Origin: Bacteroidota bacterium
Lineage (GTDB): Bacteria > Bacteroidota > Bacteroidia > Bacteroidales > UBA10428
Length of the DNA stretch: 64,000 nucleotides
Reading direction: 5' to 3'
Assembly (NCBI GenBank): GCA_003252385.1
Contig: QKEH01000137.1
Coordinates: 6,598-70,597 of the forward strand
Shown: piece by piece, positions 27,380-54,099 of the stretch
How the letters are laid out: every line of letters starts with the position of its first letter
Numbering within the stretch: the first letter of the stretch is position 1
Position numbers and translations under genes: made by a program
The notes under the pieces: generated by a model
What the model was told of the DNA's origin: nothing
What the model saw: only the letters and a program-made list of their open reading frames with translations
Databases searched by the model: none

Positions 27380-28726
27380 ATGATTCCTTTTTCGAAACTT
27401 TCCGCCTATTCCAAAAAGGCCACCAGCCGACCGCAACGCCCCGGCTGGGTACCATCGGCACTGATCCGAACGGTGCCCTATATCAGCACCTCTACGGGTG
27501 CGCTAAAGTTGAAATTTTACCGGCATTTCGCCGGGTTCATTCAGGTTATCGGCTTGTATCTGATCCGGCAGCATCCGGAGTTGGACTTATTTGGACGCAA
27601 GTTGGAGGAATTGTACCATACGCCGGTTATGGGACGCAGGCTGCAATCTTTTGTTGAACTGTTGCTTCATTTTGAACTGGCTCATCTCAAAGACAATCGT
27701 CTGCAACCGAGCCGACGCTACCTGCACATTCTGCAATCGGATCATTGTTCCATCGACTGGCTGATACACAACCCGGGAAGTAAACTGCCCAAAGATCACG
27801 CGGTGTTTCAGACGCTGGCTGCCGATTACCGGTTTATCACCGACCTGATGCGGCGTTATCGGAATACCAGTTACCAGCTGCCTCATATTATCCGGAATAA
27901 GGAGCAGTGGAGCAACCTGGTGGACAGTAGTGCGCTGGACTACGAAATACGCTTGTGCGAAACGCTTTCTTACCTCACCCGGCTGCGCTTTCCGAATAAG
28001 ATAAAAAGTCCTTTTAACGAGGCGTACTACACCGAATCGGGGCGCAATGCCTTCCGGAATTACACCCAACACCGCTTTACAGCCTGCTACGGGTATTGCA
28101 CATCTGCGACCCGGGAAGCCCATACCCTGGATATTGGCTGTGGATACGGCAATTACATCCGTGTTATTCAGGAGCAGTTTCCCCTGCACCGGGTAACCGG
28201 TATCGAAATGAACCCGGAAGTCTATCGGACTACGGCTAATGCCTTTGATGGCCGCAAAAACATCCAACTGATCAACCAAAACATTTTGAATTGGGAAACT
28301 GTGGAACGTTTTGATGTGCTGTTGATTAATTACGCCATTTTTTATTTCAACCGTACCGAAAAACTTGAATTACTAAGAAAATCGCGTGCCTTGCTCAAAT
28401 CGGGTGGTTCCGTGCTGATTTGCCAGTATTTTTCGCAGTTGGAGCCCCTTAAGCAAAGACTGGCCACTTTGCAACGCGATACTTCCATCACGCAGCGTAT
28501 TGAACGCTATTTTGGGAATAAAATATTGTACGCCAATACGCTATGGAACGATTCGGTGGATACCTTTTCCGAAGCAGCCCGCTGGGACGAATTTGAAACC
28601 CTGTGCCAGGAAGCCGGCCTGCAGATTGAAAGCCTTACTCATGCCGACCGGTTCTACTATTCCCTGTTTATCCGTTTAACTGTAAAGCATACCTCTTCCG
28701 GGCCTGCTCCTGCTGAAAAGGTGTAG
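27380..28726 (+). CDS. Class I SAM-dependent methyltransferase with a ~240-aa N-terminal extension
   Basis: SAM motif I LDIGCGYGNY at aa 250-259, then VTGIEMNP and LLKSGGSVLI. The N-terminal half has no motif I recognise, and the start codon is uncertain. Confidence 0.65.
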   Translation: MIPFSKLSAYSKKATSRPQRPGWVPSALIRTVPYISTSTGALKLKFYRHFAGFIQVIGLYLIRQHPELDLFGRKLEELYHTPVMGRRLQSFVELLLHFELAHLKDNRLQPSRRYLHILQSDHCSIDWLIHNPGSKLPKDHAVFQTLAADYRFITDLMRRYRNTSYQLPHIIRNKEQWSNLVDSSALDYEIRLCETLSYLTRLRFPNKIKSPFNEAYYTESGRNAFRNYTQHRFTACYGYCTSATREAHTLDIGCGYGNYIRVIQEQFPLHRVTGIEMNPEVYRTTANAFDGRKNIQLINQNILNWETVERFDVLLINYAIFYFNRTEKLELLRKSRALLKSGGSVLICQYFSQLEPLKQRLATLQRDTSITQRIERYFGNKILYANTLWNDSVDTFSEAARWDEFETLCQEAGLQIESLTHADRFYYSLFIRLTVKHTSSGPAPAEKV

Positions 28727-32809: not shown

Positions 32810-33330
32810 TGAAAAACGTATTCCGCAAACCAGTGCTACTGGCACTGCCGTCATTGCATTGACGTTCCCTGCTGCCCCTGCGCAGCGTATTGTATGCACC
32901 GATGCCAATGGGCATTTGCATGCCGGGCACATTGGCGTAGATCATGAATGGTGGCCCATGGTGGTTTTTATGCGCATGCTGTTCGAGCTGTACGACGCCA
33001 CCAAAGACCCCGAACTGCTAAAAGCCATTGAGAAACACTATCAGGCCACGTACCAGGACGAAAGAAGTTTTAACATCCCTAAAACCTCGGGATTCTACAT
33101 CCGGTCGGTACTGCATGTGGAGCATTTGTGCGAACTGTACCGGATTACCGGTAATGCCTTTTACCTGAAGGTAGAGGAACGATTGTATGCCGGTTTTCAG
33201 GAGCGGGCCGAACTCATGGGCGAAAACAGCGAAATGTATCAGTTTTCGGTCATGGGGTAACCTATCACGAATTTTTAAAATTGCCGGCCATCCTGTACAA
33301 ATACACCGGAAAGGAAGGTATGATTTCTCA
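32810..33330 (+). pseudogene. Frameshifted and truncated remnant of a secreted enzyme gene (possibly an alpha/alpha-toroid glycoside-hydrolase-like protein)
   Basis: ATG at 32810 gives MKNVFRKPVLLALPSLH then a stop. A shifted frame continues with a signal-peptide-like ...TAVIALTFPAAPAQ joined to the 133-aa ORF 32859..33260. After that stop, another frame reads HGVTYHEFLKLPAILYKYTGKEG. Together this amounts to at least 2 frame disruptions, and the total length is far too short for such an enzyme. Confidence 0.5.
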
Positions 33331-33443: not shown

Positions 33444-33914
33444 ATGGAAACGATACTAAAAGATACTGCAGCTACACCAAGTGGTTTCCGGGTTATACAA
33501 AACAACCACCTGGTTCAATCCATTAACAAAGGAAACCGCCTTTTTCATCAGCTCGACCTGAGCTATATCGGGGAAGATATTTTTTACCATGGATGGATAG
33601 GCTACCGCTCCGATGAACAGATCATAGAGGTTTTAACCGGCCATTTTCTGGAACTCTTTGCAAAACATCGCTGCAAGAAAATGTTGATTGATAACCGCCA
33701 AATGACCGGTTCCTTTGCCGCACTTAATTCGTGGCTTTCCGAAACCTACATGCCGCAGCTCATCAGTTTGGGTTTGGAATACAATGCCGTGGTTTACCCC
33801 GATAATGTATTCAGTCAACTGGCAGTGGAAGATTGGGATCAAAAAGTAGTAGGTTTTGAGAACCGCAGTTTTCCCAGTCTGGATCAGGCGTTAATCTGGC
33901 TCCGAAAGGTATGA
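33444..33914 (+). CDS. Hypothetical cytoplasmic protein (possibly SpoIIAA/STAS-like fold)
   Basis: 156 aa with no signal peptide. The pattern ...KKMLIDNRQMTGSFAALNSWL...AVVYPDNVF...FPSLDQALIWL resembles STAS-like modules, but this is weak. Its 3' end overlaps the convergent lipocalin-like gene by 24 nt. Confidence 0.45.
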   Translation: METILKDTAATPSGFRVIQNNHLVQSINKGNRLFHQLDLSYIGEDIFYHGWIGYRSDEQIIEVLTGHFLELFAKHRCKKMLIDNRQMTGSFAALNSWLSETYMPQLISLGLEYNAVVYPDNVFSQLAVEDWDQKVVGFENRSFPSLDQALIWLRKV

Positions 33915-34385
33915 TCCTTCTCCTGCCCGCACCCATAAAACTTCGATGGTCGATTTTATGCCTCGTACCTGCATTTCCGGGGTGCGTAGACAAAGCTTCC
34001 GATCCTGAAAGGATGCATAGCGAATTTGTTCAGTTCCCCACCAGGTGAGGTTACTGCATCCGTGTACGCGGTGCACAATTTTTCCGGGCTCTTCTTCGGT
34101 ATAACGGCCGTAATAGGCCAGGTAGGTTTCGGCAAGTGGGTCGGAATGCGCCCGCGTGTCGGTAACGGTCAACGGAATCTCATGGCAAGAATAGCCAATC
34201 TGGGCATTCACAAATCCTTCGGGGGTATACATCAATATGCCGCATGGCTGATTACCGTACAGGTTATTTCGGAGCCCGTTTCGGTGGCAGCGGAAAATTG
34301 CATCCAGAATCCAGGTGCCCGCCAGAAGCGGTGCCACATAACACGAGGTGGTGGCCATTGTGGGGTTCGGTTGGGTGGTTTTCAT
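33891..34385 (-). CDS. Lipocalin-like domain protein (Lipocalin_5-type)
   Basis: LAGTWILD..., GILMYTPEGFVNAQI, YLAYYGRYTEE..GKIVHRV and WWGTEQIRYASFQDRKLCLRTP match the bacterial lipocalin-like family signature. It starts 43 nt after the PKS stop on the same strand. Confidence 0.72.
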   Translation of the reverse strand: MKTTQPNPTMATTSCYVAPLLAGTWILDAIFRCHRNGLRNNLYGNQPCGILMYTPEGFVNAQIGYSCHEIPLTVTDTRAHSDPLAETYLAYYGRYTEEEPGKIVHRVHGCSNLTWWGTEQIRYASFQDRKLCLRTPEMQVRGIKSTIEVLWVRAGEGSYLSEPD

Positions 34386-34427: not shown

Positions 34428-37400
34428 TTACGAGAATACTTTCTGCTGATGGTGCAGGCGTATGGCATCCAATACCACCTCTACCGCTTGCCTGCCCTGT
34501 GCATAAACGGCATGGTGCCCGCCTTCCATCGAACAGAGGGTGAAGCCCCGCGAAGTGGCATGCTCCCAAAGCTGAACATCTGCAAGAGCTACCCGGTCAT
34601 CCTGGGTGGCATGAAGAGCTACTATGCCCGCATTCAATACGGTACAGTTGCGGTACGGATAGTGATACAACAGCTCAAAATCGGCACGCAGGGTTTCCAG
34701 CAATTGTTTTACCAGCTGCTCCTGTGCAGTTTGTGCTGCACTACCAATGAGGGACAGCAATTGTTCATCGGTAACCGGTGAAGCCATCAGGGTGTTGATA
34801 AAACGGTTTTCATAGCCATTCAGATACGGGGTGCCGGAAACGATAAGTGCATCGGCTTGCAGGTTATAGCGATTATTCAGTTGGCAGGCTGTCTCAAAAG
34901 CCAACACCCCACCCATACTGTGCCCAAAAATGCTAAACGGTTTGTTCAGGTGTTCTTTCAACTTGGGAACAATAAAATCCAGCAGTTGATCGTACCGTTT
35001 GATATGTTGTTCTTCCATGCGGCTGCCGTGCCCTGGAAGTTCAACCATTACCAGTTCGAAAGAAGAGGGTAGGAATACTTCCCAGTCCTTAAATAATTGA
35101 GTAGAGCCTCCGGCATCGTAGAACAGAACCAGTTGATACTCCACGCGGTTTGATTTTCGGGATTTAATCAGCCAGGGATCGTGATGGGTGGCTTCAGGTT
35201 CGGTATGTTTTTTAAAAAGCATCCGTTCGTCAATATAGCGTGCAAAGGAATTGGGCGAAGGAAACTTCGTGAAATCCTTCAGGGTAATACTGATCTGGAA
35301 TTCCTTTTCGATGCGGTTCCAAAGTTGGACCATAGAGAGCGAATCGATACCCAGACTCCTGAACGTGGTTTTGGAACTGATACTGTCGCTTGAAGCTTTG
35401 ATTAGTTTCGCAACGATTGCGATCAGGTAATCCTGTATCCACTTGATCCTTTCCTGACTGTCGGGCAGGTCGATTAGCTGCCTTATAGACGATTGGGTAT
35501 CCGCTGTTTTCTGTACCGGTTTTATCAGACCCGTATCTGCCACTGAAGCCATTACACCTTTAAGAGCCAGCACCAGGTCGCCATGCGCATTGTGTACCTG
35601 TAGTGTGCTGTTAAGACTGTAACGGGCACTTTCGCCCAGCTGCTTATGAGTAACGTGCAACGTAACCACATGGCGCTGGGTGAATGGCACCTCTTTGGGC
35701 AGGTAGATTTCCTGAATGCCCAGTACCGTAGTAAATATGAGATGTTCGGCAATAATTTTTCCTTTCATCGGAAGCAAAATGGAATGCAATGCATTGTCCA
35801 GCAATACCGGATTTAGGGAACCATTACCAGCTTCTTCAAACATATTTTCTGCCACATGAACTACCGCTTCGTAGTTTTCGCCCTGCCCCTGAATACCTAC
35901 CACATTCCTGAACGGGTGTCCATAATCCACCCCAAGGATATGTAAAAGTTGGTACAGGCTTTCACGATCGGTGTATTCAGCTGCAGGTTTGGCGCAAGTG
36001 GATTTGATCGGAGGGGCTGGCACATCCGCAATCTCACCGCTGCAGGTAAGCTGCCAGGCTTCTTCGTCGTGGGTGGCGCGGTAGAAGGCAAAAGCTGTGG
36101 GGGTTCCTTCGAAGGTGGTTACTTTTAGTTGTAGTTCGACCCGCACGTCTTTTTCCGGGTATACCGGTTGATGAAACTTCACTTTTCTCAATCCGCAAGG
36201 CTGATCAGGCAAATACCTGTTCAGCACATAGCTGACCATTTCGATATAAAAAGCCGCAGGAAACACCGAGCGGTCATTAACCCGATGTTCTTCTAAAAGC
36301 GGTTGCTGATTCACGCATAGGTGCACATTGAAATGCAGGTCGGTTAATCCGGCCAAGTTCACCTTCTCCCGGATAAAAGGGTGTTGCATACAGCCCTGAT
36401 CGGATTCGGAACGGGTTGCAAGCATGGATAAGTCTTTGAGTTGAAACTCTCCGCGTTCCATCGGATATGCCGGAAGTTCGATCTGATCGGGCCATTCAAG
36501 CTGGTAGTAGGTCTTCCAACCTATGTTGTGCCCCCGTTCAAAGACTTGTGCGAAGTTTTTCCAAAACTCTTCGTCTTCCGGGTCTTCGCGATTGAGTGAA
36601 CCAATAGACGACAGATTGGGGATTACTTGTTGTCCGGCACATTCGTAGATTGCATTTTTCAGCAATGGATGGGGGCTGAGTTCAATAAACAGGTTGGCTC
36701 CGTCGTGGAGCAGCGAATTTATCGCTTGTTCAAAATATACCGGATGGCGTAAGTTTTCCACCCAATATGCGGCGTCCATTTCAGTTCCCTGAAGCGGTTG
36801 ACGACGAACCGTGGAAACCAACGGATACCTGCCTTTTTGCGGGTGTATATTTTCCAGCTGTATCAAAAGGTCGTGGGTAATGGCGTCCATTTGTGCACTA
36901 TGCGAAGCCACATCCACCTGAACCTGGCGGCCGAACAAATCCTTACTTTCCAAATCGCTAAGCAGGCGATTAATCGCCTCCTGCGATCCGGAAACAACCG
37001 TGGATTTTGGGCTGTTATTGACTGAAATCTCCAATGATCCGGAGAAATTCGTCAGGAATTCCCGGGTTTGATCCAGTCCCAGGCCCACTACCGCCATGGT
37101 GCTTCCCTGTCCGCTAAGCGAACGCATCAGTTGGCTGCGCGAACAAATAATCCGGGCGGCATCGGGAAGGGTGAGCACTCCGGCAATATGAGCAGCTGCC
37201 ACTTCGCCCATGCTGTGTCCAACTACTGCATCGGGAACCACTCCAAGGGAAAGCCACAAGTGAGCCAGACTTACCTGAATGGCAAAAATATATGGCTGGA
37301 TCACATCGATACGTTGCAGCAACCCGGTATCTTCCGATGCCTGCATCAGGTTTGTCAACGACCAGTTGGTAAAGGGTTTCAGTGCTTCAGCACAACGTTG

Positions 37401-39095
37401 CATGGCTTCGAAAAAAACCGGCTGCGAAGTATACAAGCGGCACCCCATGCCATGCCATTGCGATCCTTGTCCGGAAAAAACAAATACCGTCCGATCGGGT
37501 ATTCGACCTTGAACAGGTTCGGTAATTTGGATGGATTGATGAAATTTCACCAGATGCTCACACAATTGTTCCCGGCTTGTGGCCACAACCAGTTTGCGGA
37601 ATTCCAACTGAGGTTTTCGAATGGCAAAGGCAGCACAAAAGTGGCGCAGTGCTTCGGGGTGGTTGTCCACTTTTTTCTCCACAAAGTCGGCTACCTTTTT
37701 GGCGTAACTCTTGAGTGCCGTATCGGAACTGGCCGACAATGGTAAAACAAAGTACTTTTGGGTGAAAGTAGGATTGGATTCTCTTGCGCGGCAAGGTTTG
37801 TATTCCTGAAGTACAATATGGGCATTGCTTCCGCCCCATCCGAAAGAGCTTACTCCGGCCAGTAAAGGCTTTTCGGCATTAGCAGGCCAGGCAGTGGTCT
37901 TGTTGGCTACCTCAAGATGCCACTCATCAAACCGAATTTTGGGATTGGGTGTTTCAAAATGGATGTTTGCCGGAATTTCGCGGTGCTGCATGGCCAAAAC
38001 TACCTTCAGTAAACCCGCAATCCCCGAGGCGGCTTCGGTATGTCCAATACTGGCTTTTACCGAGCCAATGAGCAATGGGGGTTTACGGATGCGGGAAGTG
38101 CCAAAGAAAGCACCCAGGGCTTCTGCTTCTAACGGATCGCCCAACCGGGTGCCCGTTCCGTGTGTTTCGATGTAATCAACATCGCATGGGTCGATTCCTG
38201 ACTGTTGATATGCTTTTTCGAGCAGGCGATATTGTCCTTTGGCGCTCGTAGCCGGCATGTGGGTATTGAATCCGTTGTTATTGAAGGCTCCGCCACGAAT
38301 TACTGCAAGTATGCGATCGCGATCGTTTTCGGCAGTTTCAAGCGGTTTTAAGAGAACCAGCCCTGCCCCTTCTGCACGAACAAAACCGTCGGCATTGGCA
38401 TCAAAACAACGGCATTGCCCGGCACTCGATAGCCCTCCGAATTTTGCCAGGTACACGTATTGTTCGGGGTTTAGGATATGGTTGACTCCTCCGGCGATGC
38501 CCATATCAATTTTCCCGTTTTGAAGCGATTCCACACACTGCATCACCGCTATAAGCGACGACGAACAACCGGTGTCGAGCACATAACTGGGGCCGGTTAA
38601 CCCGAAGAAGTATGATATACGGTTAGCAATCACATTGTTGGACTGTCCAATTCCTGAGAAATTATTGATTTCGGCATGTCTTTGGTTTCGGAAATGTTCG
38701 AAATCGGCCCAGATATTCCCCAGGTAAACCCCGGTGTTGGTACCTGCAAGGGCATCGAAGGGCATCGTACTGCTTTCGAAAAGTTCCCAGGCCAATTCCA
38801 TCATCAGTTTCTGCGAGGGGCTCATTTCATAAGCTTCCATGGGCGATATGGAAAATAGCTTAGGATCAAAATGGTGGATGGTTTCTAAAAAACCACCTAC
38901 ATTCTGGTTGGTTTTATTGGGTTTCTTTCCATCGGGATGATAGTATCTGCTCATATCCCATCGGTCGGATGGAACAGGCTCAATGGCAGACCGTCCTTCT
39001 TTCAACAGTTTCCAAAGTTCTTCGGGATGAGCTGCTTTTGGAAAACGACACGACATCCCGATTATAGCAATGGCTTTTTCGTTTCTGGCACGCAT
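34428..39095 (-). CDS. Type I polyketide synthase, single module KS-AT-DH-ACP-TE (no KR, ER or MT)
   Basis: 1555 aa. All catalytic motifs were read directly (see the domain sub-features). Confidence 0.95.
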   Translation of the reverse strand: MRARNEKAIAIIGMSCRFPKAAHPEELWKLLKEGRSAIEPVPSDRWDMSRYYHPDGKKPNKTNQNVGGFLETIHHFDPKLFSISPMEAYEMSPSQKLMMELAWELFESSTMPFDALAGTNTGVYLGNIWADFEHFRNQRHAEINNFSGIGQSNNVIANRISYFFGLTGPSYVLDTGCSSSLIAVMQCVESLQNGKIDMGIAGGVNHILNPEQYVYLAKFGGLSSAGQCRCFDANADGFVRAEGAGLVLLKPLETAENDRDRILAVIRGGAFNNNGFNTHMPATSAKGQYRLLEKAYQQSGIDPCDVDYIETHGTGTRLGDPLEAEALGAFFGTSRIRKPPLLIGSVKASIGHTEAASGIAGLLKVVLAMQHREIPANIHFETPNPKIRFDEWHLEVANKTTAWPANAEKPLLAGVSSFGWGGSNAHIVLQEYKPCRARESNPTFTQKYFVLPLSASSDTALKSYAKKVADFVEKKVDNHPEALRHFCAAFAIRKPQLEFRKLVVATSREQLCEHLVKFHQSIQITEPVQGRIPDRTVFVFSGQGSQWHGMGCRLYTSQPVFFEAMQRCAEALKPFTNWSLTNLMQASEDTGLLQRIDVIQPYIFAIQVSLAHLWLSLGVVPDAVVGHSMGEVAAAHIAGVLTLPDAARIICSRSQLMRSLSGQGSTMAVVGLGLDQTREFLTNFSGSLEISVNNSPKSTVVSGSQEAINRLLSDLESKDLFGRQVQVDVASHSAQMDAITHDLLIQLENIHPQKGRYPLVSTVRRQPLQGTEMDAAYWVENLRHPVYFEQAINSLLHDGANLFIELSPHPLLKNAIYECAGQQVIPNLSSIGSLNREDPEDEEFWKNFAQVFERGHNIGWKTYYQLEWPDQIELPAYPMERGEFQLKDLSMLATRSESDQGCMQHPFIREKVNLAGLTDLHFNVHLCVNQQPLLEEHRVNDRSVFPAAFYIEMVSYVLNRYLPDQPCGLRKVKFHQPVYPEKDVRVELQLKVTTFEGTPTAFAFYRATHDEEAWQLTCSGEIADVPAPPIKSTCAKPAAEYTDRESLYQLLHILGVDYGHPFRNVVGIQGQGENYEAVVHVAENMFEEAGNGSLNPVLLDNALHSILLPMKGKIIAEHLIFTTVLGIQEIYLPKEVPFTQRHVVTLHVTHKQLGESARYSLNSTLQVHNAHGDLVLALKGVMASVADTGLIKPVQKTADTQSSIRQLIDLPDSQERIKWIQDYLIAIVAKLIKASSDSISSKTTFRSLGIDSLSMVQLWNRIEKEFQISITLKDFTKFPSPNSFARYIDERMLFKKHTEPEATHHDPWLIKSRKSNRVEYQLVLFYDAGGSTQLFKDWEVFLPSSFELVMVELPGHGSRMEEQHIKRYDQLLDFIVPKLKEHLNKPFSIFGHSMGGVLAFETACQLNNRYNLQADALIVSGTPYLNGYENRFINTLMASPVTDEQLLSLIGSAAQTAQEQLVKQLLETLRADFELLYHYPYRNCTVLNAGIVALHATQDDRVALADVQLWEHATSRGFTLCSMEGGHHAVYAQGRQAVEVVLDAIRLHHQQKVFS
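34446..35144 (-). other. PKS C-terminal thioesterase domain (aa ~1318-1550)
   Basis: LVLFYDAGGS, GHS(1393)MGG nucleophile elbow, and late Asp/His residues (ATQDD..., EGGHH). Confidence 0.85.
35226..35483 (-). other. PKS acyl carrier protein domain (aa ~1205-1290)
   Basis: Phosphopantetheine site LGIDS(1252)LSMVQL. Confidence 0.88.
35541..36398 (-). other. PKS dehydratase-like double-hotdog domain (aa ~900-1185)
   Basis: H(937)xxxDxxxxP in LLEEHRVNDRSVFPAAFY, and D(1100)xxxH in LLDNALHS. Confidence 0.75.
36591..37490 (-). other. PKS acyltransferase domain (aa ~536-835)
   Basis: FSGQGSQWHGMG; GHS(628)MGE nucleophile; the specificity position reads VASH (aa 729-732). Confidence 0.9.
37806..39077 (-). 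other. PKS ketosynthase domain (aa ~7-430)
   Basis: IAIIGMSCRFP; active-site Cys177 in DTGCSSS (codon at 38565..38567); HGTGT at aa 312-316; GHTEAASG at aa 351-358; GSNAH. Confidence 0.93.
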
Positions 39096-39549: not shown

Positions 39550-40464
39550 ATGAAATGTACCATGGATACATGCGTAAACCTACAGAAAGAAGAAACTGTT
39601 AATTGGATTTCTGAACCGGAACTAAACGATGGTAATCAGCTGGAAAGGCTGGAGATTGAGCTTTTGTTGGAAGCCATTCATTCTCGCTATGGTTACGACT
39701 TTAGCAACTATTCTCCCAAATGTATCCGGCGTCGTATCCTTCACTTTCTCCGTCAGTCGCCTTACCCGGCAATTGCCGATTTGATCCACCCCATACTTAC
39801 CCAAGCCCCTTTTTTTCAGAAATTCATGCAACACCTGTCCATTACGGTGACCGAAATGTTCAGGGATCCCAACTTCTACCAGGAAATACGCAGCCGGGTA
39901 ATACCGGTATTGAGAACCTATCCGTACATTAAGATATGGCATGCCGGATGTGCAACCGGCGAAGAAGTGTATTCCATGGCTATTATCTTAAAAGAAGAAG
40001 GCTTGTTGGAACGAAGCCAGCTCTATGCCACAGATTTTAATCACCATGCTCTCATACTGGCGAGCGATGGCCGTTATACCAGCGAAACCGTCCATCAGTA
40101 TCAGGCGAACTACAGCCTTTCTGGCGGAAAAGGCCTGCTTACAGACTACTTTACCTGCAGTAAGCGCCACCTGCAAATCAGTAAAGAATTGAAATCCAAC
40201 ATTTTTTTCACCAGTCACAACCTGGTAACCGACAGCCTTTTTGGCGAAATGAATGTAATCTTCTGCCGGAATGTACTGATCTATTTTAATTCGGATTTGC
40301 AAAACCGGGTACTGAATATGATGAGCGAGAGCCTGGTATATAATGGTTTTTTATGCCTGGGTGCCAAGGAATCCCTCTGCTCCTATCCACACGCTCATTT
40401 TTACCATACTACCTCCGGGAAAATCGGGATTTTTCAAAAAAAACACGCGATTCCTCCATTCTAA
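39550..40464 (+). CDS. CheR-type protein-glutamate O-methyltransferase (stand-alone)
   Basis: N-terminal CheR helical domain (LEIELLLEAIHSRYGYDFSNYSPKCIRRRI). SAM-binding IWHAGCATGEEVYSMAIIL, DFNHHAL and IFCRNVLIYF. Confidence 0.85.
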   Translation: MKCTMDTCVNLQKEETVNWISEPELNDGNQLERLEIELLLEAIHSRYGYDFSNYSPKCIRRRILHFLRQSPYPAIADLIHPILTQAPFFQKFMQHLSITVTEMFRDPNFYQEIRSRVIPVLRTYPYIKIWHAGCATGEEVYSMAIILKEEGLLERSQLYATDFNHHALILASDGRYTSETVHQYQANYSLSGGKGLLTDYFTCSKRHLQISKELKSNIFFTSHNLVTDSLFGEMNVIFCRNVLIYFNSDLQNRVLNMMSESLVYNGFLCLGAKESLCSYPHAHFYHTTSGKIGIFQKKHAIPPF

Positions 40465-40509
40465 AGAAGCCGATAACCGCAACACAAGACTACTACCTAC
40501 ACCAACCAT

Positions 40510-43500
40510 ATGAAATTCAAGCAAAATAAAGCCGTCTATGGGACTGTTATCACCCTGGTAATCCTTGCGGCAGGCAGTTTGGCACTCAACAACCTGGGAT
40601 GCCGGCCATTAGGCTACCATCCAACTGTACATTCGGCAGTGGAGGCCATTGGGTCTCTGGTGGCCCTGTTAACCTGGTTTTTTCTTTATCGGAGTGCGAA
40701 CCCCGATGATAAAGTACTTCAGTGGCTGGCACAGGGATTTCTTGCCATGGGAATTCTGGATGGATTTCATGCACTTCTTGTTCCTGGAAATCATTTTGTT
40801 CTTATACACTGCCTGTCCGACTTGTTCGGAGGCACCTTGTTTGCCATGTCCTGGAGCACTTTGTTTTGGACATCATTCCGAACCCGTCTGGCGGCTTTTC
40901 TTACCGCCTGCACGGCTTTACTGGTGGGGCTGACATCCATTTTTTGGCCACATGGCATGCCGGTTTTCTGGTCCAATGGACACTATACCTCCCTGGCCGT
41001 TGCCATGAACCGGCTGGCGGCTATACTGTTTTTTCTGGCCGGCCTTTATTTTGTGCGCCTGTTGCTTTCCGGCAAACGCAACCCAGGTGTTTTGTTAAGT
41101 GTGGTATTGGCTGTGCTGCTAGGAGTTTCGAGCATTCTGTTAGAATTTTCCAATCTTTGGAATTCCTTCTGGTGGACCCTTCATGCCGTGCGTCTTTCAG
41201 CCTATATTTTTACCCTATGGTATTTGTTACGCGGCGTAGGCCAAATGCAAACCGAACTCAGCAAAAGCAATCAAATGCTGGCCAGGCAACAAGCCGAAAT
41301 TGAACAGGTAAATGCCGAACTCCGACGACAAACCGACAGTTTGAAGCAATCCGAAGAAAAACTCATTGCCCAGCAGCAGAAAATGGTAACCTTTAATACC
41401 GAACTGGAAGAGAAAACCTTGTTTCTGGAAGAACAAAAACAAGAGATTCTTGAAAAGAACCGGGAAAGTGAGCTGAATAACTGGCTCAAAACCGGGCAAA
41501 CCGAATTGGAAAAGCACATGAGGGGAAATAAGCAACCCGAAGTGCTGTGCCGCAACATTCTCACTTTTGTTTGCAACTACCTGCAAGCCGAAGTTGGCAC
41601 CATGTACCTGCTATCAAGTCCGGATACCCTGCAATTTACTGCCGGCTATGCCTTCGACTCCAACCGCCCCCATTTTTCTGAATTTAAAATAGGCGAAGGC
41701 TTTCCGGGGCAGGTCGCTCAGGATGGCCGGCGTATGCTGCTCAAAACTTTCCCCAACAATTACATGCAAATGAAATCGTCGCTGGGGACTAAAAATCCAG
41801 AGCTTATTGTGATCAGTCCGCTGATTTTTGAGGGACAAACCCTGGGTGTTTACGAATTGGGATGCTCGCATGACCTGGAAAACATTCACTATGATTTCCT
41901 GGACAGTATTCACGATAGTGTGGCGATCAGCATACAATCCCTTTTATCCCGGATTCGCCTGGACGAAGCCTTGTCGAGAGCACAGCTACAGGCCGAAGAA
42001 TTGCAGGTTCAGCAGGAAGAGTTGGAAAAAGCCAACGAAGAACTGCGACAACAAACCGATATTCTGATTCAATCGGAAAGAAAGCTGATGATACAGCAGG
42101 AAGAATTGCAGGCGAGCAATGAGGAACTGGCCCAGAAAACCTTGTATTTGGAAGAACAGAAAAAGGAAATCGACCGCAAAAACCACACTCTCGAAGAAGC
42201 CAGAAATACCCTGTCCGTTAAAGCCAGAGAACTGGAAGTTACCAGTCAGTACAAATCCGATTTTTTGGCAAACATGTCGCACGAACTTCGCACCCCCCTG
42301 AACAGTTTACTGATACTTGCACAGCAGTTGCACCGAAATAAGGAGCAGAATCTGATGCCCGATCAGGTAAAAGCAGCCGAAGTGATATATTCCAGTGGTT
42401 CCGATTTATTGCACCTCATTAACGATATTCTGGATCTGTCCAAAATTGAATCGGGTAAGATGATTCTCCAATGGGAAGATGTCAGCCTGAGCCAACTGGT
42501 AGAATCGTTACAGAATCGATGTCTGCCATTGATTCAGGAAAAAGGCCTCGAATTCACCCTAAAAATAGATACGACCCTGCCGCACACTATCCGAACCGAC
42601 CGAACCCGCACGGAACAGGTGCTGATGAATCTGCTGTCGAATGCCATGAAATTCACCGAAACAGGAACTGTTGGTCTTCACTTTTATCCCGCGGAACCTG
42701 ACCGGAATCAAAATCAACAGGACAACCATCCGGGCATGCTGGCCATGGAAATAAGCGATACAGGAATGGGAATACCCGAGGATAAACAGCAGATTATTTT
42801 TGAGGCATTTCAGCAGGTCGATAGCAGCATATCCCGGAAATTTGGTGGCACAGGCCTGGGTCTGTCCATTTCGCGCGAGCTTGCCAACCTGTTGGGAGGA
42901 AAGTTGCAGCTAAGAAGTACCCTGGGCAAAGGATCCGTTTTCACCCTGTTGGTTCCAATGATTCCTAATCCATCACGGAATGAAAGCCAAATCGAATCCG
43001 GAGAGGGACGCAGGAAACCGGATCTCTCCTCCCTGCTGTCGGATGGCATGCAACCAGCCCCGGCAGTTTCCGATGACCGGTTATCCCTGCACAATGGTGA
43101 CTGTATTGTAATGGTGATTGATCACGATTCGCACAGCACGGCTTATATTCACGACCAATGCCGAAAAAACGAGCTGAAATTCTTGCACGCCCTGAATGGA
43201 AACGAAGGTATAGAACTCGTCTATAAGTACCCTGTAGAAGCCATTTTACTGGCGTTGGATTTGCAGGATATGCCTGGCGAAGAGGTGTTACTTGCACTTA
43301 AGAGCGAATCCTGCACCCGACACATACCGGTGGTAACCCTGTTAGGAGCAAACTGTTCCATTCCGGCATTGTGCAAAGGAGCCTTAGCTATTGTGCAAAA
43401 GCCATTAAATCCCAAACGATTTGATACCGTGTTTAACACCCTTCTCGGTTTCATAGCGAAAAAGACAAAATCGCTACTCATTGTAGAAGATAATCAGCTC

Positions 43501-44271
43501 ATCCGGGAAAAACTCACGGAATTGCTGGCAGCCGATGATCTGACCATCACCCTTCTTGACACAGGAATGCAGGCAGTAAAAGCCATTCAGGATACCTCCT
43601 ACGATTGTATGATCCTGGATTTAATGCTACCCGATATCTCCGGCATAGAATTGCTCCAAAAGCTACAGGCAGATGCTGCGAAACCCCTTCCCCCCATCAT
43701 TGTATACACGGCCAAGGATTTGACCCGACAGGAAGCCGAGCAGCTTCAAAAGTATGCCCGTTCCATCATAATAAAAGGCCCCAACTCCAATGAACGGATC
43801 TTCGAAGAAACCTCGCTTTTTCTGCACCGGCCTTCAACCAGTCTGACCCCAAAAGGGCAGCAGATGCTTCAAAAAATCTACGACCACGAAACCATTTTTA
43901 AAGGTAAATCTGTGCTCCTGGTCGATGACGATATGCGCAATGTATTTGCCATATCGCAAGTACTCGAAGAAAAGGGAATGGACATTCACATAGCATCCAA
44001 TGGAAAGCTGGCACTGGAAAAGCTGCAAAGCGGAAAAGCTATTGATATGGTACTCATGGATATCATGATGCCGGTTATGGACGGATACGAAGCCATCCGT
44101 CGCATACGCTCCCAGGAATGCTTTTGGAAACTGCCCATAGTGGCTCTAACTGCAAAGGCCATGAAGGATGACCGCGAGAAATGCATGGCGGCAGGTGCCA
44201 ACGACTACCTATCCAAACCCATCCATATCGAACGTTTATTAGCCCTTATGCGAATATGGTTTTTTAATTAA
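40510..44271 (+). CDS. Hybrid sensor histidine kinase: polytopic membrane domain / coiled coil / GAF / coiled coil / HisKA-HATPase / 3 receiver domains
   Basis: About 7 hydrophobic helices (aa 1-240). A GAF-like region (aa ~340-485). H-box FLANMSH(591)ELRTPLNS, and the N/G boxes (LMNLLSNAMKFT, DTGMGIP, GGTGLGLSI). Receivers have acceptor Asp at ~917, 1036 and 1184. Confidence 0.9.
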   Translation: MKFKQNKAVYGTVITLVILAAGSLALNNLGCRPLGYHPTVHSAVEAIGSLVALLTWFFLYRSANPDDKVLQWLAQGFLAMGILDGFHALLVPGNHFVLIHCLSDLFGGTLFAMSWSTLFWTSFRTRLAAFLTACTALLVGLTSIFWPHGMPVFWSNGHYTSLAVAMNRLAAILFFLAGLYFVRLLLSGKRNPGVLLSVVLAVLLGVSSILLEFSNLWNSFWWTLHAVRLSAYIFTLWYLLRGVGQMQTELSKSNQMLARQQAEIEQVNAELRRQTDSLKQSEEKLIAQQQKMVTFNTELEEKTLFLEEQKQEILEKNRESELNNWLKTGQTELEKHMRGNKQPEVLCRNILTFVCNYLQAEVGTMYLLSSPDTLQFTAGYAFDSNRPHFSEFKIGEGFPGQVAQDGRRMLLKTFPNNYMQMKSSLGTKNPELIVISPLIFEGQTLGVYELGCSHDLENIHYDFLDSIHDSVAISIQSLLSRIRLDEALSRAQLQAEELQVQQEELEKANEELRQQTDILIQSERKLMIQQEELQASNEELAQKTLYLEEQKKEIDRKNHTLEEARNTLSVKARELEVTSQYKSDFLANMSHELRTPLNSLLILAQQLHRNKEQNLMPDQVKAAEVIYSSGSDLLHLINDILDLSKIESGKMILQWEDVSLSQLVESLQNRCLPLIQEKGLEFTLKIDTTLPHTIRTDRTRTEQVLMNLLSNAMKFTETGTVGLHFYPAEPDRNQNQQDNHPGMLAMEISDTGMGIPEDKQQIIFEAFQQVDSSISRKFGGTGLGLSISRELANLLGGKLQLRSTLGKGSVFTLLVPMIPNPSRNESQIESGEGRRKPDLSSLLSDGMQPAPAVSDDRLSLHNGDCIVMVIDHDSHSTAYIHDQCRKNELKFLHALNGNEGIELVYKYPVEAILLALDLQDMPGEEVLLALKSESCTRHIPVVTLLGANCSIPALCKGALAIVQKPLNPKRFDTVFNTLLGFIAKKTKSLLIVEDNQLIREKLTELLAADDLTITLLDTGMQAVKAIQDTSYDCMILDLMLPDISGIELLQKLQADAAKPLPPIIVYTAKDLTRQEAEQLQKYARSIIIKGPNSNERIFEETSLFLHRPSTSLTPKGQQMLQKIYDHETIFKGKSVLLVDDDMRNVFAISQVLEEKGMDIHIASNGKLALEKLQSGKAIDMVLMDIMMPVMDGYEAIRRIRSQECFWKLPIVALTAKAMKDDREKCMAAGANDYLSKPIHIERLLALMRIWFFN

Positions 44272-44290
44272 ACTTTTAATTACGAGGATT

Positions 44291-46876
44291 ATGTGCGGAG
44301 GAAAACCTATTATTTTATTGGTTGACGACAAGTCGGAAAATTTGTTTGCCCTGGAACAGTTACTTGGCGAGCTGGAGGTGGATACCCTGGCCGCATTATC
44401 GGGCAACGAAGCCATAACCAAAACGTTGGAATACGAATTTGCTCTGGCACTTATTGATGTTCAAATGCCCGACATGGATGGATTTGAAACGCTGGAGTTG
44501 CTTCGAAAAAACAGGGCTACAAAAAACCTGCCCGTAATTTTTATTACCGCAACCTACCAACCCGATTATTCAAAAGTGAAGGGCATTGAACGCGGGGCGG
44601 TCGATTTTTTAACCAAACCCATCGTGCCGGAATTGTTATTGGGTAAAATAAGGGTGCTTCTTAGTCTCTATGAACAACAAAAACAACTCTCCAATACCAT
44701 TAAGGAACGTGATATTGCTTTGCAACATCTCGAAGAGTACAAAGAACATCTGGAAGAACTGGTAGAAACCCGAACCAATGAGCTGGCCAATGTCAATGCC
44801 GGACTGGAAGAAGAAATTTCCATACGAAAAGATACGGAAACCCGGTTACGAGCCAGTGAGGAACGGTACCGTTTGCTTACGGAAAACGCCATTGATTGCA
44901 TTTGGACAATGGATGTAAGGATGCGTTTTACCTATGTAAGCCAGGCCATGGAACTGGTAACTGATTTTACACCGGAGGAGTGCATGGGTAAACCACTTTC
45001 CGCCTTTTGCGACTGGATTCACTTTGCCAAAGTCGCCCGGCTGGCGCTCGGCACCCTGCACAATCCGTTGGAATATCCCTACCTGAGGATTGAAACCCAG
45101 CTTCGATCCAAAAACGGCCAGTCCATCCCTATTGAAATAGCAGGTAAAGCCTTATTAGACAGCCAGGGTAAAGTGATTGGTTTACAGGGTTCCATGAAAG
45201 ATATTACCGAACGTGTCCAGTCGCATCGCGCGTTGCTGGAAAGCGAAAATCGCTTTCGAACCCTGTTCGACAGTTCCCCCGACATGTATGTGTCGTTTGC
45301 ACCAAAAGATGGACGCATTCTGCTCAGCAACCGCACCATGATGGCGCATCTGGGATATGCGGTCGAGGAACTGCGCGGTCGGGAGATCTTTGAGTTTTAT
45401 GCCGACAACGAACAGGATTTATTTAAACTCTTGCAAGAGGAAGGACGCTTAATCGATAAAGAGCTTAAACTGAAAAGAAAGGACAATACTTACATTGATG
45501 TGAACCTCAATGCAGAGGCCATCTACAACACCAACCATCAGCTGGTCTATTACATTGCTACCTGCAGAGACATTAGCCAGCGAATACGAACTGAACAGAA
45601 GCTAACCGACCAGAAGAAGAAGATTTTTGAGCAAATGAAGAATTTCAGCGAGCTCAACAAGGAATATCAGGCACTGAACAAAAACCTCATTAACTCCAAC
45701 CTTAAACTGAAAGAAACCAATATCCAATTGGAAATAGCAAAGAAGAAAGCAGAGGAGAGCGACCGGCTGAAATCGGCATTCTTAGCCAATATGTCGCACG
45801 AGATCCGTACTCCGATGAATGCGATTATTGGCTTTTCCAACCTTTTGAAAGATAATACACTCACAAGTAAAAAAACCGAGCACTATGTCGAACTAATCAA
45901 TAACTCCGGTCAGTATTTACTCAAGCTGATCAACGACATTATTGACCTCTCCAAATTGGAAGCCAGGCAATTAAAAATAAGCTATTGCACGTGTCGACTT
46001 TACGAAATTTTCCGTAATTCCTATGAGCTTTTCCTTCATCATGAGGTGTATAAGTCGAACGAAAAGGTGGATCTCTTGCTCGATGTGGATGAAGCCCAGT
46101 GTACCTGGAACATTGTGACCGATCAGATTCGCTTTGAACAGGTACTTAATAACCTTATTAACAATGCACTAAAATTCACTAAGGAAGGGCACGTACGGAT
46201 AGGCTATCGAGTCACCAAAGATGAAAGTCGCAGCTTTCTGGAGGTGTATGTGGATGATACCGGAATTGGTATACCGGACGAGATGAAGAACGTTATTTTT
46301 GAACGCTTCCGGCAGGTAAAAGAGCTGGACTATCACGAAGGCGCAGGTTTGGGACTGTGCATCTCAAAAGGTATTGTTGAACTCATGGGAGGTACTATCT
46401 GGTATGAAAGCGAGCCGGGTAAAGGATCTACCTTCTTTTTCACCATTCCCCTAAAAATAAACCTCTATTCCGAACCCGTGAAAACGCGCAACACCAACGG
46501 ACAGCTTAATCTGGCCAACAAAACCATTTTTATTGCTGAAGATGACAAGAATTCGTACGAATACCTGGAAGATTTACTCCAGGAAACCCAGGTAACCATT
46601 AAACATGCGCATAATGGCGAAGAACTCATGGAACTGTTGGAAGAGTCGATTCCCGACTTAATTCTGCTGGATATGAATATGCCGAGAAAAAATGGATACG
46701 ATTGCCTGAAAGAAATTAAACAAAAGCAAATTCCGGTTAAGATTATTGCACAGACCGCCTATGCCATGGCCAACGATAAAGAAAAATACCTCAACGAAGG
46801 CTGCCATGCTTATATTGCCAAGCCCTACGAGAGAAATGAAATGATACAAAAAATTGAAGAAGTATTGCAGGAATGA
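44291..46876 (+). CDS. Hybrid sensor histidine kinase: REC / coiled coil / 2 PAS / HisKA-HATPase / REC
   Basis: N-terminal receiver (ILLVDDKSEN, LIDVQMPDMDG, FLTKP). PAS-like repeats (EERYRLLTENAIDCIW..., ENRFRTLFDSSPDMYV...). H-box FLANMSHEIRTPMNAI; DDTGIGIP; GAGLGLCIS. C-terminal receiver (IFIAEDD, LLDMNMPRKNG, AYIAKP). Confidence 0.9.
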   Translation: MCGGKPIILLVDDKSENLFALEQLLGELEVDTLAALSGNEAITKTLEYEFALALIDVQMPDMDGFETLELLRKNRATKNLPVIFITATYQPDYSKVKGIERGAVDFLTKPIVPELLLGKIRVLLSLYEQQKQLSNTIKERDIALQHLEEYKEHLEELVETRTNELANVNAGLEEEISIRKDTETRLRASEERYRLLTENAIDCIWTMDVRMRFTYVSQAMELVTDFTPEECMGKPLSAFCDWIHFAKVARLALGTLHNPLEYPYLRIETQLRSKNGQSIPIEIAGKALLDSQGKVIGLQGSMKDITERVQSHRALLESENRFRTLFDSSPDMYVSFAPKDGRILLSNRTMMAHLGYAVEELRGREIFEFYADNEQDLFKLLQEEGRLIDKELKLKRKDNTYIDVNLNAEAIYNTNHQLVYYIATCRDISQRIRTEQKLTDQKKKIFEQMKNFSELNKEYQALNKNLINSNLKLKETNIQLEIAKKKAEESDRLKSAFLANMSHEIRTPMNAIIGFSNLLKDNTLTSKKTEHYVELINNSGQYLLKLINDIIDLSKLEARQLKISYCTCRLYEIFRNSYELFLHHEVYKSNEKVDLLLDVDEAQCTWNIVTDQIRFEQVLNNLINNALKFTKEGHVRIGYRVTKDESRSFLEVYVDDTGIGIPDEMKNVIFERFRQVKELDYHEGAGLGLCISKGIVELMGGTIWYESEPGKGSTFFFTIPLKINLYSEPVKTRNTNGQLNLANKTIFIAEDDKNSYEYLEDLLQETQVTIKHAHNGEELMELLEESIPDLILLDMNMPRKNGYDCLKEIKQKQIPVKIIAQTAYAMANDKEKYLNEGCHAYIAKPYERNEMIQKIEEVLQE

Positions 46877-50986: not shown

Positions 50987-51012
50987 TCCACTCAAATTGT
51001 GAATAAAACAGG

Positions 51013-51046
51013 AAAGGAGCACGGATATTCCCGCGGCTCCTTTTTT
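51013..51046 (+). terminator. Rho-independent terminator after the OmpA-family gene
   Basis: AAAGGAGC...GCTCCTTT stem followed by T6. It lies inside the 5' extension of tracked ORF 50999..52117, which argues for the later start at 51083. Confidence 0.65.
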
Positions 51047-51082
51047 AATTTAGAAGATGGAATAACCAATAACATAAAAACC

Positions 51083-52117
51083 ATGCCAACCTTTAAAAAA
51101 GCCCTAATGCTAACGGGCGCAGCAGCACGTATTTCGCAGGAAGTAGCCCTGTTTGACAAGTTGCGCGAACCACGCTACCAAAACTTGACCCTTTCCGAAG
51201 ACGACACCCTGCTTTGCGGGTTTAGCTCCGGATCGTTAAACCTGGCTGCTATCAACGCATGCTTCCGAAAGAAGGATCCCTGTAGTTGGGATAATTACTA
51301 CAAAGAATCAGTACTGTTCCCATTAACCAGTTCTCAGGTGTTCAATGCGTTTCCCATTCTGCATTTGCCTATTTACAGTACCCATCCCCTGCGCGATACC
51401 CTCGAAGATTTTTTGCGCAATACCCAAATGACCTATACCCGCGATTTACTGTTTCAGTCGTACATTCTCACTATGGCCGACCGGACAAGAGACGAACGAA
51501 GCGACCAGAAAAAGTGGGAAACTCTATGGGCCTGCAGTCGCAACCCGATGCAGGAGAACCTCTATTTGGCCGATTTGCTCATGTCGTCAACGGCCATACC
51601 GGTAGCTTTTCCTTCGCAGGAAATCTATGGTAAGCCGGGTAGTACAACCGATTTTCCGACCCGAAAATTCTACGATGGGGGCACTGGTGGCACTTTTGCC
51701 CGCTTCGAAGACTACCTGGGCAGCCTGATCCTCCAAAACGGCCCTCTGGACGAACTTTACATTATCAGTCCTATGCGCGAAAAGTCGGAGGAAGAAATCC
51801 ATCTGGAGTTTAACCATCTTTTTTCTGGTTTGGAGGCCCTGGAAATTAAACAGTTTAAAGACTTTCTAAGCTCAATTTCCATGAAAACCTTCATGAAGTT
51901 TCTGGTTGCCCTGCAGCAATGGGGGCAACAGCATTTTCCCATGGCGAAGCATTGCTACGTATGCATCCCCGAAATGGAAAGCAATTTTAAAATTCTGGAT
52001 TTTGATAACGAAAAGCCCCAATACCAGGCTGTTTGCAAATGGGTCGACCAACATCCCGACCGGCTTGCCATACCACTCGATCAATTTATTAAAAGCCACC
52101 AAAACGATCTTGCCTAG
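51083..52117 (+). CDS. Patatin-like phospholipase
   Basis: GxSxG nucleophile (GFSSG), DGG Asp motif (FYDGGTGG), and a degenerate oxyanion loop TGAAAR in place of GGGxR. Start set at the internal ATG after the terminator. Confidence 0.72.
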   Translation: MPTFKKALMLTGAAARISQEVALFDKLREPRYQNLTLSEDDTLLCGFSSGSLNLAAINACFRKKDPCSWDNYYKESVLFPLTSSQVFNAFPILHLPIYSTHPLRDTLEDFLRNTQMTYTRDLLFQSYILTMADRTRDERSDQKKWETLWACSRNPMQENLYLADLLMSSTAIPVAFPSQEIYGKPGSTTDFPTRKFYDGGTGGTFARFEDYLGSLILQNGPLDELYIISPMREKSEEEIHLEFNHLFSGLEALEIKQFKDFLSSISMKTFMKFLVALQQWGQQHFPMAKHCYVCIPEMESNFKILDFDNEKPQYQAVCKWVDQHPDRLAIPLDQFIKSHQNDLA

Positions 52118-53346: not shown

Positions 53347-54099
53347 ATGCTTCGCAAACTGGCAAATTGGCTTTATCTGCCCTACCGATGGCTGTTTTAC
53401 ATTCCATTTTTCTTTATTAACACCCTGTTTTTCGGCACTTTGGCTGTTCTTATGTCGCTGCTTTTTAATGCCCGCATAGGTAGCTACTTTGGAGGGGTAC
53501 TGTGGGCACGCTTTAATTCGTTGCTGGTTCCCATGCTGCCCAGCGTAACCGGCAGGGAACACATCGACCCGAAGACTTCCTATGTGGTGCTGGCCAACCA
53601 CCAGAGTATGTACGATATTTTTCTCCTCTACGGGTGGATTGGTATCGATATCAAATGGGTGATGAAGAAAGAACTGCGCAAGGTACCCGGACTGGGATTT
53701 GGCAGCGAGAAGGTGGGACACATTTTTCTGGATCGCTCGAACAGCCGTGCGGCAGTTCAAAGTTTGGAAGAAGCCAAACGCAAGCTGGTAAACGGTACGT
53801 CGGTGGTTATTTTCCCCGAAGGCACCCGCAGCCCCGATGGATCTTTGGGTCCCTTCAAACGCGGAGCCTTTAAGCTGGCCATGGATCTTGAACTTCCCAT
53901 ACTTCCGGTAACCCTTGTAAACACCCGAAAGATACTACCCGCCAAAGGCCTGCAGTTGCTTCCCGGAAGAGTCCAAATGCATATCCACGCCCCTATTGAC
54001 ACCAGCAGCTACCCGGACGATTCGATGCAAGAACTTATGGATCGTGTAAAAAGAGATATTCTCAGCGCAGCTCCCGAAACGGTTACTTCCCAAGAATAA
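53347..54099 (+). CDS. 1-acyl-sn-glycerol-3-phosphate acyltransferase (PlsC family)
   Basis: HxxxxD motif (NHQSMYDI), FPEGTRS and PILPV blocks, and an N-terminal TM helix. Confidence 0.85.
   Translation: MLRKLANWLYLPYRWLFYIPFFFINTLFFGTLAVLMSLLFNARIGSYFGGVLWARFNSLLVPMLPSVTGREHIDPKTSYVVLANHQSMYDIFLLYGWIGIDIKWVMKKELRKVPGLGFGSEKVGHIFLDRSNSRAAVQSLEEAKRKLVNGTSVVIFPEGTRSPDGSLGPFKRGAFKLAMDLELPILPVTLVNTRKILPAKGLQLLPGRVQMHIHAPIDTSSYPDDSMQELMDRVKRDILSAAPETVTSQE

Follow-up and report, generated by a model that had tools for sequence, protein, structure and literature searches.

A stand-alone, ketoreductase-less type I polyketide synthase and its conserved lipocalin and STAS-like partner genes in Bacteroidota

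What might a polyketide synthase (PKS) of type I make when it stands alone among ordinary chromosomal genes, with a dehydratase (DH) domain but no ketoreductase (KR)? The question is raised by a single gene in a 64,000-nucleotide stretch of a Bacteroidota metagenome contig (QKEH01000137.1, positions 6,598 to 70,597; Logan SRR7216773), the whole of which is referred to here as the window. The reading preferred here, held with about even confidence, is that of an intact, stand-alone, single-module PKS with its acyltransferase (AT) in cis, which belongs to the KR-less form of its family, constitutes a three-gene unit with a lipocalin and a STAS-like protein (S155), and would carry out unreduced, methyl-branched chemistry. 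The architecture and the family assignment are secure; it is the product and its biological role that we infer.

The PKS is encoded by an open reading frame (ORF) that runs uninterrupted across 4.7 kb. Its ketosynthase (KS), AT, DH, acyl carrier protein (ACP), and thioesterase (TE) domains are recognized by Pfam with E-values that span 1e-10 to 1e-88:

34428..39095, minus strand: type I PKS gene, KS-AT-DH-ACP-TE, KR-less; 1555 aa from an ATG start (Pfam and NCBIfam)
37800..39077, minus strand: KS domain, aa 7-432, with C177, H312, and H352
aa 7-381: Pfam KS matches, E-values 2.5e-81 and 9.6e-39
aa 383-520: Pfam KS-AT linker
36543..37487, minus strand: AT domain, aa 537-851, Pfam E-value 8.7e-88, with GHS628MGE, R653, VASH at 729-732, and RIDVIQP
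35526..36383, minus strand: double-hotdog DH domain, aa 905-1190, with H937, Y1058 of a YGP-like motif, and D1100xxxH
aa 905-998 and aa 1042-1181: the two Pfam halves of the DH, PKS_DH_N and PS-DH, respectively
35232..35432, minus strand: ACP (PP-binding), aa 1222-1288, phosphopantetheine site S1252
34500..35135, minus strand: C-terminal TE, aa 1321-1532, Pfam E-value 9.4e-27, with S1393, D1499, and H1527

An earlier note on this DNA had described a KS-AT-DH-ACP-TE protein of this length from its motifs, and every motif lies at the residue it gave: DTGC from 174 (hence C177), HGTGT from 312, and GHTEAASG from 351 in the KS; GQGSQ from 542, GHSMGE from 626 (S628), and VASH from 729 in the AT; H937xxxDxxxxP and D1100NALH in the DH; LGIDSL from 1248 (S1252) in the ACP; and GHSMGG from 1391 (S1393) in the TE. 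The residues expected of a cis-AT type I PKS (C177, H312, H352, S628, R653, and S1252) are all present, and the catalytic residues of the KS, AT, ACP, and TE are invariant in 82 homologues. The N-terminus is the KS itself, from residue 7, without a loading or docking domain.

The absence of a KR, also claimed in the earlier note, is borne out: in the PKS protein Pfam gives zero matches to KR (PF08659) or adh_short even at E<=1, and only about 37 residues separate the end of the DH from the ACP region. In an alignment of 83 sequences the DH-ACP spacing is 490-547 aa in KR-containing homologues vs 36-45 aa in KR-less ones; a KR block of about 500 aa is thus cleanly absent. Such a protein might be the remnant of a PKS that once contained a KR, decaying or silent and making nothing useful. 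The missing KR block, the lack of a phosphopantetheinyl transferase (PPTase) gene in the 64-kb window, and the origin of the sequence in a metagenome contig would all suit a remnant. Against it stand the uninterrupted ORF, the intact KS, AT, ACP, and TE catalytic residues, which are invariant over 38 KR-less homologues at about 40% identity, the conservation of partner genes alongside the PKS, and the age and diversity of the KR-less clades; a remnant is scarcely credible.

The family to which the PKS belongs was delimited by a search of a 5.8-billion-sequence database, in which the closest relatives are only 44% identical. More than 80 homologues (38 KR-less, 44 with KR) were found in Bacteroidota genomes and metagenomes; the layout, which had been taken for something foreign to the described biology of Bacteroidota, is therefore unstudied in the phylum rather than absent from it. 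Confined to Bacteroidota, the family counts at least 80 sequence clusters, which come from Marinilabiliales and Cytophagales. Its KR-less form, of about 1560 aa and the order KS-AT-DH-ACP-TE, is found in Carboxylicivirga, Breznakibacter, Ohtaekwangia, and Chryseosolibacter; its KR form, of about 2000-2080 aa and the order KS-AT-DH-KR-ACP-TE, is found in Fulvivirga and Flammeovirgaceae and is the commonest architecture of the family. No characterized member was found in literature searches on the family, as the earlier note had supposed, and the papers retrieved for the KS-AT-DH-KR-ACP-TE domain string concern only animal and fungal PKSs. The enzyme class is a known one; the conserved set of partner genes described below is undescribed.

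A neighbour-joining tree of the KS-AT region, rooted with 12 actinobacterial modular PKSs, places the Bacteroidota family, the window PKS included, in one monophyletic group (100/100 bootstrap replicates). The window PKS branches deep, with or beside clade A (Marinilabiliales); at the base of the family, clades A and B make up a grade of KR-less enzymes. The other KR-less lineages (clade C, clade D, and P0084) lie within KR-containing ones, which implies repeated KR loss there. P0084 is a recent KR deletion: its KS and AT are 93% identical to those of its KR-containing sisters P0106 and P0115, its DH is only 52% identical and has the catalytic histidine replaced by arginine, and the DH is diverging fast once the KR is gone.

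The missing KR had suggested a non-reducing synthase that works iteratively and makes aromatics, after the manner of AviM/CalO5 or the fungal non-reducing PKSs (NR-PKSs), in which the DH-like domain would serve as a product-template (PT) or thioester-hydrolase domain and an orsellinate-like acid would be built from malonyl units. Besides the absence of the KR, this explanation can call on a stand-alone gene that begins with the KS, like those of iterative PKSs, and on a KS-AT-hotdog-ACP-TE order that mirrors an NR-PKS minus its starter-unit acyltransferase (SAT). The affinities of the individual domains, compared with sequences from the PDB, point elsewhere. For the KS, bit scores served as a rough proxy for a KS tree. 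They are highest against modular cis-AT synthases (PikA1 421, CurL 384, GfsA 375, DEBS about 340-358) and Pks13 (354), and lower against norsolorinic acid synthase, a fungal NR-PKS (245), and fatty acid synthase (FAS; 239). The earlier note had itself named a KS that groups with modular cis-AT or with polyunsaturated fatty acid synthases as evidence against its reading; by bit score the grouping is with the modular synthases, and against the PfaA model TIGR02813 the protein reaches only 330 of the 1010 bits set as cutoff. With NF045894, the NCBIfam model for type I PKSs in general, it scores 965 bits.

The AT likewise departs from what an orsellinate synthase, which needs malonyl, would contain. 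Its top PDB matches are the ATs of DEBS AT3 (255 bits), Lsd14, DEBS AT5, Pik (214-218), and MAS (213), all of which we take to be methylmalonyl-specific. Scores are lower against PpsA (186), PpsC (175), and CurL (158), whose ATs are presumably malonyl-specific, and against Pks13 (138) and FAS (99). The VASH motif, GHSMGE, and the catalytic arginine are invariant in all 82 homologues, and a motif (R/E)I(N/D)V(I/V)QP, near the RVDVVQP of methylmalonyl-type ATs, is conserved family-wide. VASH had been read as neither malonyl- nor methylmalonyl-type; it is a documented variant of YASH in methylmalonyl, ethylmalonyl, and methoxymalonyl ATs (PMC7327777). The AT is thus assigned to the methylmalonyl type because of two of its three signature motifs, VASH and RIDVIQP, and its best scores against the DEBS, MAS, and Pik ATs; its specificity is most likely for methylmalonyl or some other 2-substituted malonyl unit.

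The remaining domains also disagree with an aromatic synthase. The DH alone matches CurK, CurF, and CurH in a PDB sequence search, and a profile made from 16 sequences of clades A and B and run against the PDB at E<=1 matches CurK, CurF, and CurJ at 1e-36 to 1e-33 (CurK 1.6e-36). In this sequence-level test 47 PDB sequences are matched, nearly all of them dehydratase domains of PKSs or FASs and none a PT domain; nor does the chain of norsolorinic acid synthase that the KS query picked up appear among the DH-profile matches at this threshold. By its sequence the domain is a modular-type dehydratase. There is no SAT domain of the kind found at the N-terminus of fungal NR-PKSs, since the KS begins at residue 7. 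A TE is present, and to our knowledge AviM and CalO5 have none. The best PDB matches of this TE are 6vap (which we take to be BorB), 3qmv/3qmw (presumably RedJ), the surfactin TE subunit, and RifR; it resembles a type II thioesterase, and its Ser, Asp, and His are invariant across the homologues. The nearest relatives of the PKS are, moreover, KR-containing reducing enzymes. Two features of the DH considered next, a dyad that the clade has kept although its KR is missing and a tyrosine replaced by phenylalanine that hints at non-canonical chemistry, could still be cited for an aromatic product, and such a synthase is unlikely overall.

The preferred reading of a methyl-branched, unreduced PKS leaves the DH to be accounted for. 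The window protein has the residues of a canonical dehydratase (H937, D1100xxxH, and Y1058); the glycine of HxxxGxxxxP is an aspartate, as it is in many KR-containing relatives. The DH His and Asp are invariant in the 44 KR-containing proteins and are retained in 22/22 members of the deep KR-less clades A and B. In the nested KR-less lineages they are not: the Asp is replaced by Ser, Ala, or Thr in clade C, and the His by Arg or Asn in clade D, P0084, and some members of clade C. Sequence identity within clade A is 0.39 for the DH and 0.66 for the KS, vs 0.35 and 0.72 among KR-containing enzymes, so that DH conservation relative to the KS in clade A is not below that of the KR-containing enzymes. 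Because the dyad is kept in every member of clades A and B although clade A DH identity is only 0.39, it appears to be under selection, which suggests that the DH retains a catalytic role in the KR-less grade without a cis KR. The YGP tyrosine is phenylalanine in 15/16 clade A members (the window protein has Tyr), a hint that DH chemistry there may be other than plain dehydration. The DH could act by enolization, by cyclization, or by dehydration following reduction in trans; a non-canonical DH role, as proposed earlier, is plausible, with the dyad seemingly kept by selection in the clade.

Reduction in trans would make the DH a genuine dehydratase. A FabG or other short-chain dehydrogenase/reductase (SDR) encoded elsewhere would reduce the chain, and the product would be a 2-methyl-2-enoic or polyenoic acid, as expected of the KR-containing paralogues. 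The modular-type DH sequence, the His, Asp, and YGP Tyr of the window protein, and the dyad in 22/22 clade A and B members agree with this, and the lipocalin partner, which is common to the KR-containing enzymes, suggests similar products. The window also contains a FabG-like SDR gene at 9852..10598 (adh_short_C2 3e-70, KR 8e-22). This gene lies 24 kb away, adjoins a succinyl-CoA ligase alpha-subunit-like gene (8775..9749), and has a housekeeping look; a hidden Markov model made from the KR of KR-containing relatives found no other candidate for a cluster-encoded trans KR, and the SDR was rejected as one. No SDR gene is conserved in any of 16 PKS neighbourhoods. Other KR-less lineages quickly lose the dyad; trans reduction, then, does not serve as a general backup across the family, and the Phe of 15/16 clade A members in place of the YGP Tyr also argues against it. 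Trans reduction followed by dehydration is accordingly regarded as possible but doubtful. With no KR in cis, an unreduced product, which the earlier note had also expected, is the simplest expectation.

The genes that accompany the PKS offer further clues to its function. Two adjoin it in the window:

33891..34385, minus strand: Lipocalin_5 (PF13924) gene, 164 aa, Pfam E-value 4.1e-17, on the strand of the PKS and 42 bp downstream of it
33444..33914, plus strand: S155, 156-aa STAS/SpoIIAA-like gene, convergent with the lipocalin gene, whose 3' end it overlaps by 24 bp

It had been claimed that no PPTase, tailoring oxygenase, or exporter sits in the operon; a PPTase gene was indeed not found in the 64 kb, but these two conserved partner genes had been overlooked. 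In three clade A relatives a Lipocalin_5 gene follows the PKS and a gene for a 155-156-aa protein with no Pfam match precedes it. In all of 16 distinct loci, which include every clade and the KR-containing enzymes, the first gene downstream of the PKS is the lipocalin gene, and in 15 of them an S155 homologue is adjacent.

Seven lipocalin residues (W25, Y53, Y88, Y91, H105, R122, and W151) are invariant in all clades, and the AlphaFold2 (AF2) model (pLDDT 86.6) is a calycin barrel. Its nearest Foldseek matches are a Bacteroides ovatus lipocalin, nitrophorins, and nitrobindin. The PKS-linked lipocalins are probably cytoplasmic, since a signal peptide is not obvious by eye. The idea of a lipocalin that serves as a Diels-Alderase or cyclase was considered and set aside: the matches were generic lipocalins, nitrophorins, and nitrobindin, and AbyU and PyrI4 are absent from the best 50 of 1180.

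S155 of the window is 48-54% identical to the genes beside homologous PKSs, and its close relatives number only 38 in 5.8e9 proteins. The AF2 model (pLDDT 93.5), which has STAS-fold matches, shows a STAS/SpoIIAA-like fold to which a beta extension is added at the N-terminus; the S155-like partners of KR-containing PKSs are without this N-terminal extension of about 30 residues. A HMMER search of 1.8 billion representative proteins gives 2317 distant relatives, only 9 of them at E<=1e-30. In distant relatives an S155-type domain is fused to the C-terminus of a PAS-HisKA-HATPase kinase or to the N-terminus of LytTR, the usual position of a receiver domain; for this reason S155 is more readily seen as a signalling module than as an enzyme, although by such analogy its part in signalling is no more than a lead.

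When S155 was used to scan 185,579 species genomes, 13 loci came up, all in metagenome-assembled genomes (MAGs) of Marinilabiliales/Bacteroidales except that of the cultured Carboxylicivirga linearis FB218; a metagenome scan gives only 5 loci, mostly on short contigs. A gene for a methyl-accepting chemotaxis protein (MCP) is found directly upstream of S155 in 7 Marinilabiliales loci, and an Sfp-type PPTase gene is adjacent in loci L005, L019, L020, and L026. A fatty acyl-AMP ligase (FAAL) gene is found in none of the PKS neighbourhoods examined.

Some S155 loci have no PKS. In L016 (9364..12272, MAG OH_CBlB_256) the S155-lipocalin pair occurs without a type I PKS and is flanked by genes for a divergent FabH/KASIII-like protein of 434 aa and a YbgC/FadM-type 4HBT thioesterase; in this single case another condensing enzyme and thioesterase may feed the same two partner proteins. 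In L014 (9995..11445) and L023 (2873..4317) a lone S155 homologue, without PKS or lipocalin, adjoins a gene for a SiaC-family regulatory phosphoprotein (PF09345) and a hexapeptide transferase gene, neighbours that link S155 to partner-switch signalling.

The preferred reading of the window PKS can be put as a sequence of steps. The KS would be self-priming, there being neither a loading module nor a FAAL gene, and no AMP-ligase gene lies near the PKS. The AT would load methylmalonyl or another 2-substituted malonyl unit onto S1252, and one or a few Claisen condensations would then yield alpha-methyl-beta-keto thioesters without cis reduction. His937 and Asp1100 of the DH might act non-canonically on this chain, for example in enolization or cyclization, or dehydrate an intermediate reduced in trans. 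The hydrolytic TE would free a small acid or pyrone-type product, to be bound or processed by the lipocalin, in which the invariant Arg, His, and Tyr would suit a carboxylate or enolate ligand. S155, together with an MCP in the relatives, might tie the product to signal transduction. The product is probably a small polyketide, methyl-branched and unreduced, and not an aromatic of the orsellinate kind, though the chances for and against this product class are about evenly balanced.

Several points count against this reading. The placement of the window PKS in clade A has a bootstrap value of only 35%, and the trees are neighbour-joining trees only. The AT has GHSMGE instead of GHSQGE, its sole malonyl-like feature, so that its specificity for methylmalonyl is probable, not certain. 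An ordinary modular DH sequence with His, Asp, and the YGP Tyr fits dehydration after trans reduction equally well. Chain length, number of iterations, and mode of release are what we infer for the enzyme; the signalling role, drawn solely from gene neighbourhood and domain analogy, is a lead; and the window contains no MCP gene.

That the lipocalin and STAS-like partners are constant and an MCP gene is frequent suggests that the product may be a signal. A broader and distinctly tentative proposal is that PKS, lipocalin, and S155 together form a polyketide-based signalling module widespread in Bacteroidota, in which the PKS, minimal in form, would make a small ligand (a methyl-branched keto-acid or a pyrone), the cytoplasmic calycin would hold or mature it, and the receiver-like STAS protein (with the MCP in Marinilabiliales) would read it; repeated KR losses would then retune the chemistry of the signal from lineage to lineage, and in the window clade the orphan DH would have gained a new catalytic function.

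Comparison with known systems sets the window PKS apart from each of them. The Bacteroidota KR-containing PKSs of Fulvivirga ulvae (P0064) and Flammeovirgaceae (P0118), which are annotated and uncharacterized, are 42-46% identical to it over the shared domains. They are of the same family, with VASH and GHSMGE, the same type of TE, a lipocalin gene downstream, and an S155-like gene adjacent; unlike the window PKS they have the KR block of 490-547 aa between DH and ACP, and reduced, dehydrated products are therefore expected of them. The modular cis-AT modules of DEBS, Pik, and curacin provide the best KS, AT, and DH matches and have the same domain order and linkers. Unlike them, the window PKS stands alone, without partner modules or docking domains, and pairs no KR with its DH; the likeness of its TE is to editing thioesterases of type II (6vap, RifR, and relatives), not to the offloading TEs of DEBS and Pik.

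AviM and CalO5 and the fungal NR-PKSs share with the window PKS the lack of a KR, a hotdog domain between AT and ACP, and a single self-priming polypeptide. The window AT is methylmalonyl-type, unlike the malonyl-type ATs of the orsellinate synthases AviM and CalO5, and the window PKS has a TE; unlike the fungal NR-PKSs, it is without a SAT, its DH profile detects no PT domains, and its KS scores against them are much lower. Pks13, the mycobacterial mycolic condensase, is also a KR-less, single-module type I PKS with a TE at its end, and the product that it sets free is an alpha-branched beta-keto compound. It differs from the window PKS in its N-terminal ACP, its AT for long-chain carboxyacyl units, its dependence on FadD32, and its lack of a DH; the window PKS scores 774 bits against the NCBIfam Pks13 model, whose cutoff is 2100, and its AT scores 138 bits against Pks13 vs 255 against DEBS AT3. 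A precedent for signalling may exist in Clostridium acetobutylicum, in which a stand-alone iterative PKS reportedly makes clostrienoic acid/clostrienose, a small polyketide said to regulate differentiation. That PKS is likewise a single type I gene among ordinary chromosomal genes of an anaerobe; it is a reducing enzyme with a KR, comes from another phylum, and has no lipocalin or STAS partner that we know of.

Bacteroidota are poorly explored for polyketides and this PKS family is unstudied. The three-gene unit is compact and has a cultured host in C. linearis FB218. The family offers a test case for DH function in a KR-less PKS and amounts to an experiment of nature: at least three lineages embedded among KR-containing enzymes have no KR block, and the DH decays or, in the window clade, stays conserved. 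This pattern of KR loss bears on the evolution of PKS reductive loops and on PKS engineering. The signalling role, if true, would constitute a new class of signalling by small molecules, and this in a major phylum that is both environmental and gut-associated.

The genes that flank the three-gene unit are ordinary chromosomal genes, as the earlier note had it, and include gyrA, clpB, ftsY, and genes for an S41 peptidase and an Rrf2 regulator; a protein sorted by the type IX secretion system is encoded in the window as well, which fits a Bacteroidota origin. A foreign island was considered and rejected, with GC content of 0.49-0.50 at the PKS vs 0.45-0.47 in neighbouring DNA showing no clear anomaly. 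A scan for promoters and terminators, made with a sigma-70 consensus unsuited to Bacteroidota, gave fewer matches than shuffled sequence. One flanking gene is listed for context:

39550..40464, plus strand: CheR-type methyltransferase gene (Pfam), divergent from the PKS, membership of the cluster uncertain

This gene is followed by two for hybrid histidine kinases (1253 and 861 aa), the three spanning 39550..46876 and divergent from the PKS; the recurrence of chemotaxis-type genes near PKS clusters may or may not be meaningful. On the other side, between S155 and the gene for the Rrf2 regulator, lies a 133-aa ORF (32859..33260) that has weak matches to the central part of the glycoside hydrolase families GH127, GH88, and GH76 and may be what is left of a gene.

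Farther out, 27380..28726 encodes a SAM-dependent methyltransferase of 448 aa, the N-terminal 230 aa or so of which have no Pfam match. A patatin-like phospholipase gene (50999..52117), a PlsC-type acyltransferase gene (53347..54099), and a gene for a secretory-lipase-like hydrolase (54230..55522) stand together, about 12 kb from the PKS, as a small neighbourhood of lipid metabolism. The 922-aa protein encoded at 48218..50986 has an OmpA-like C-terminus and two long internal duplicated segments that are apparent by eye (for example '...GTEYILTLSKPD...VKYNFTS' and '...GKEYILTISKTD...VKYDFTA').

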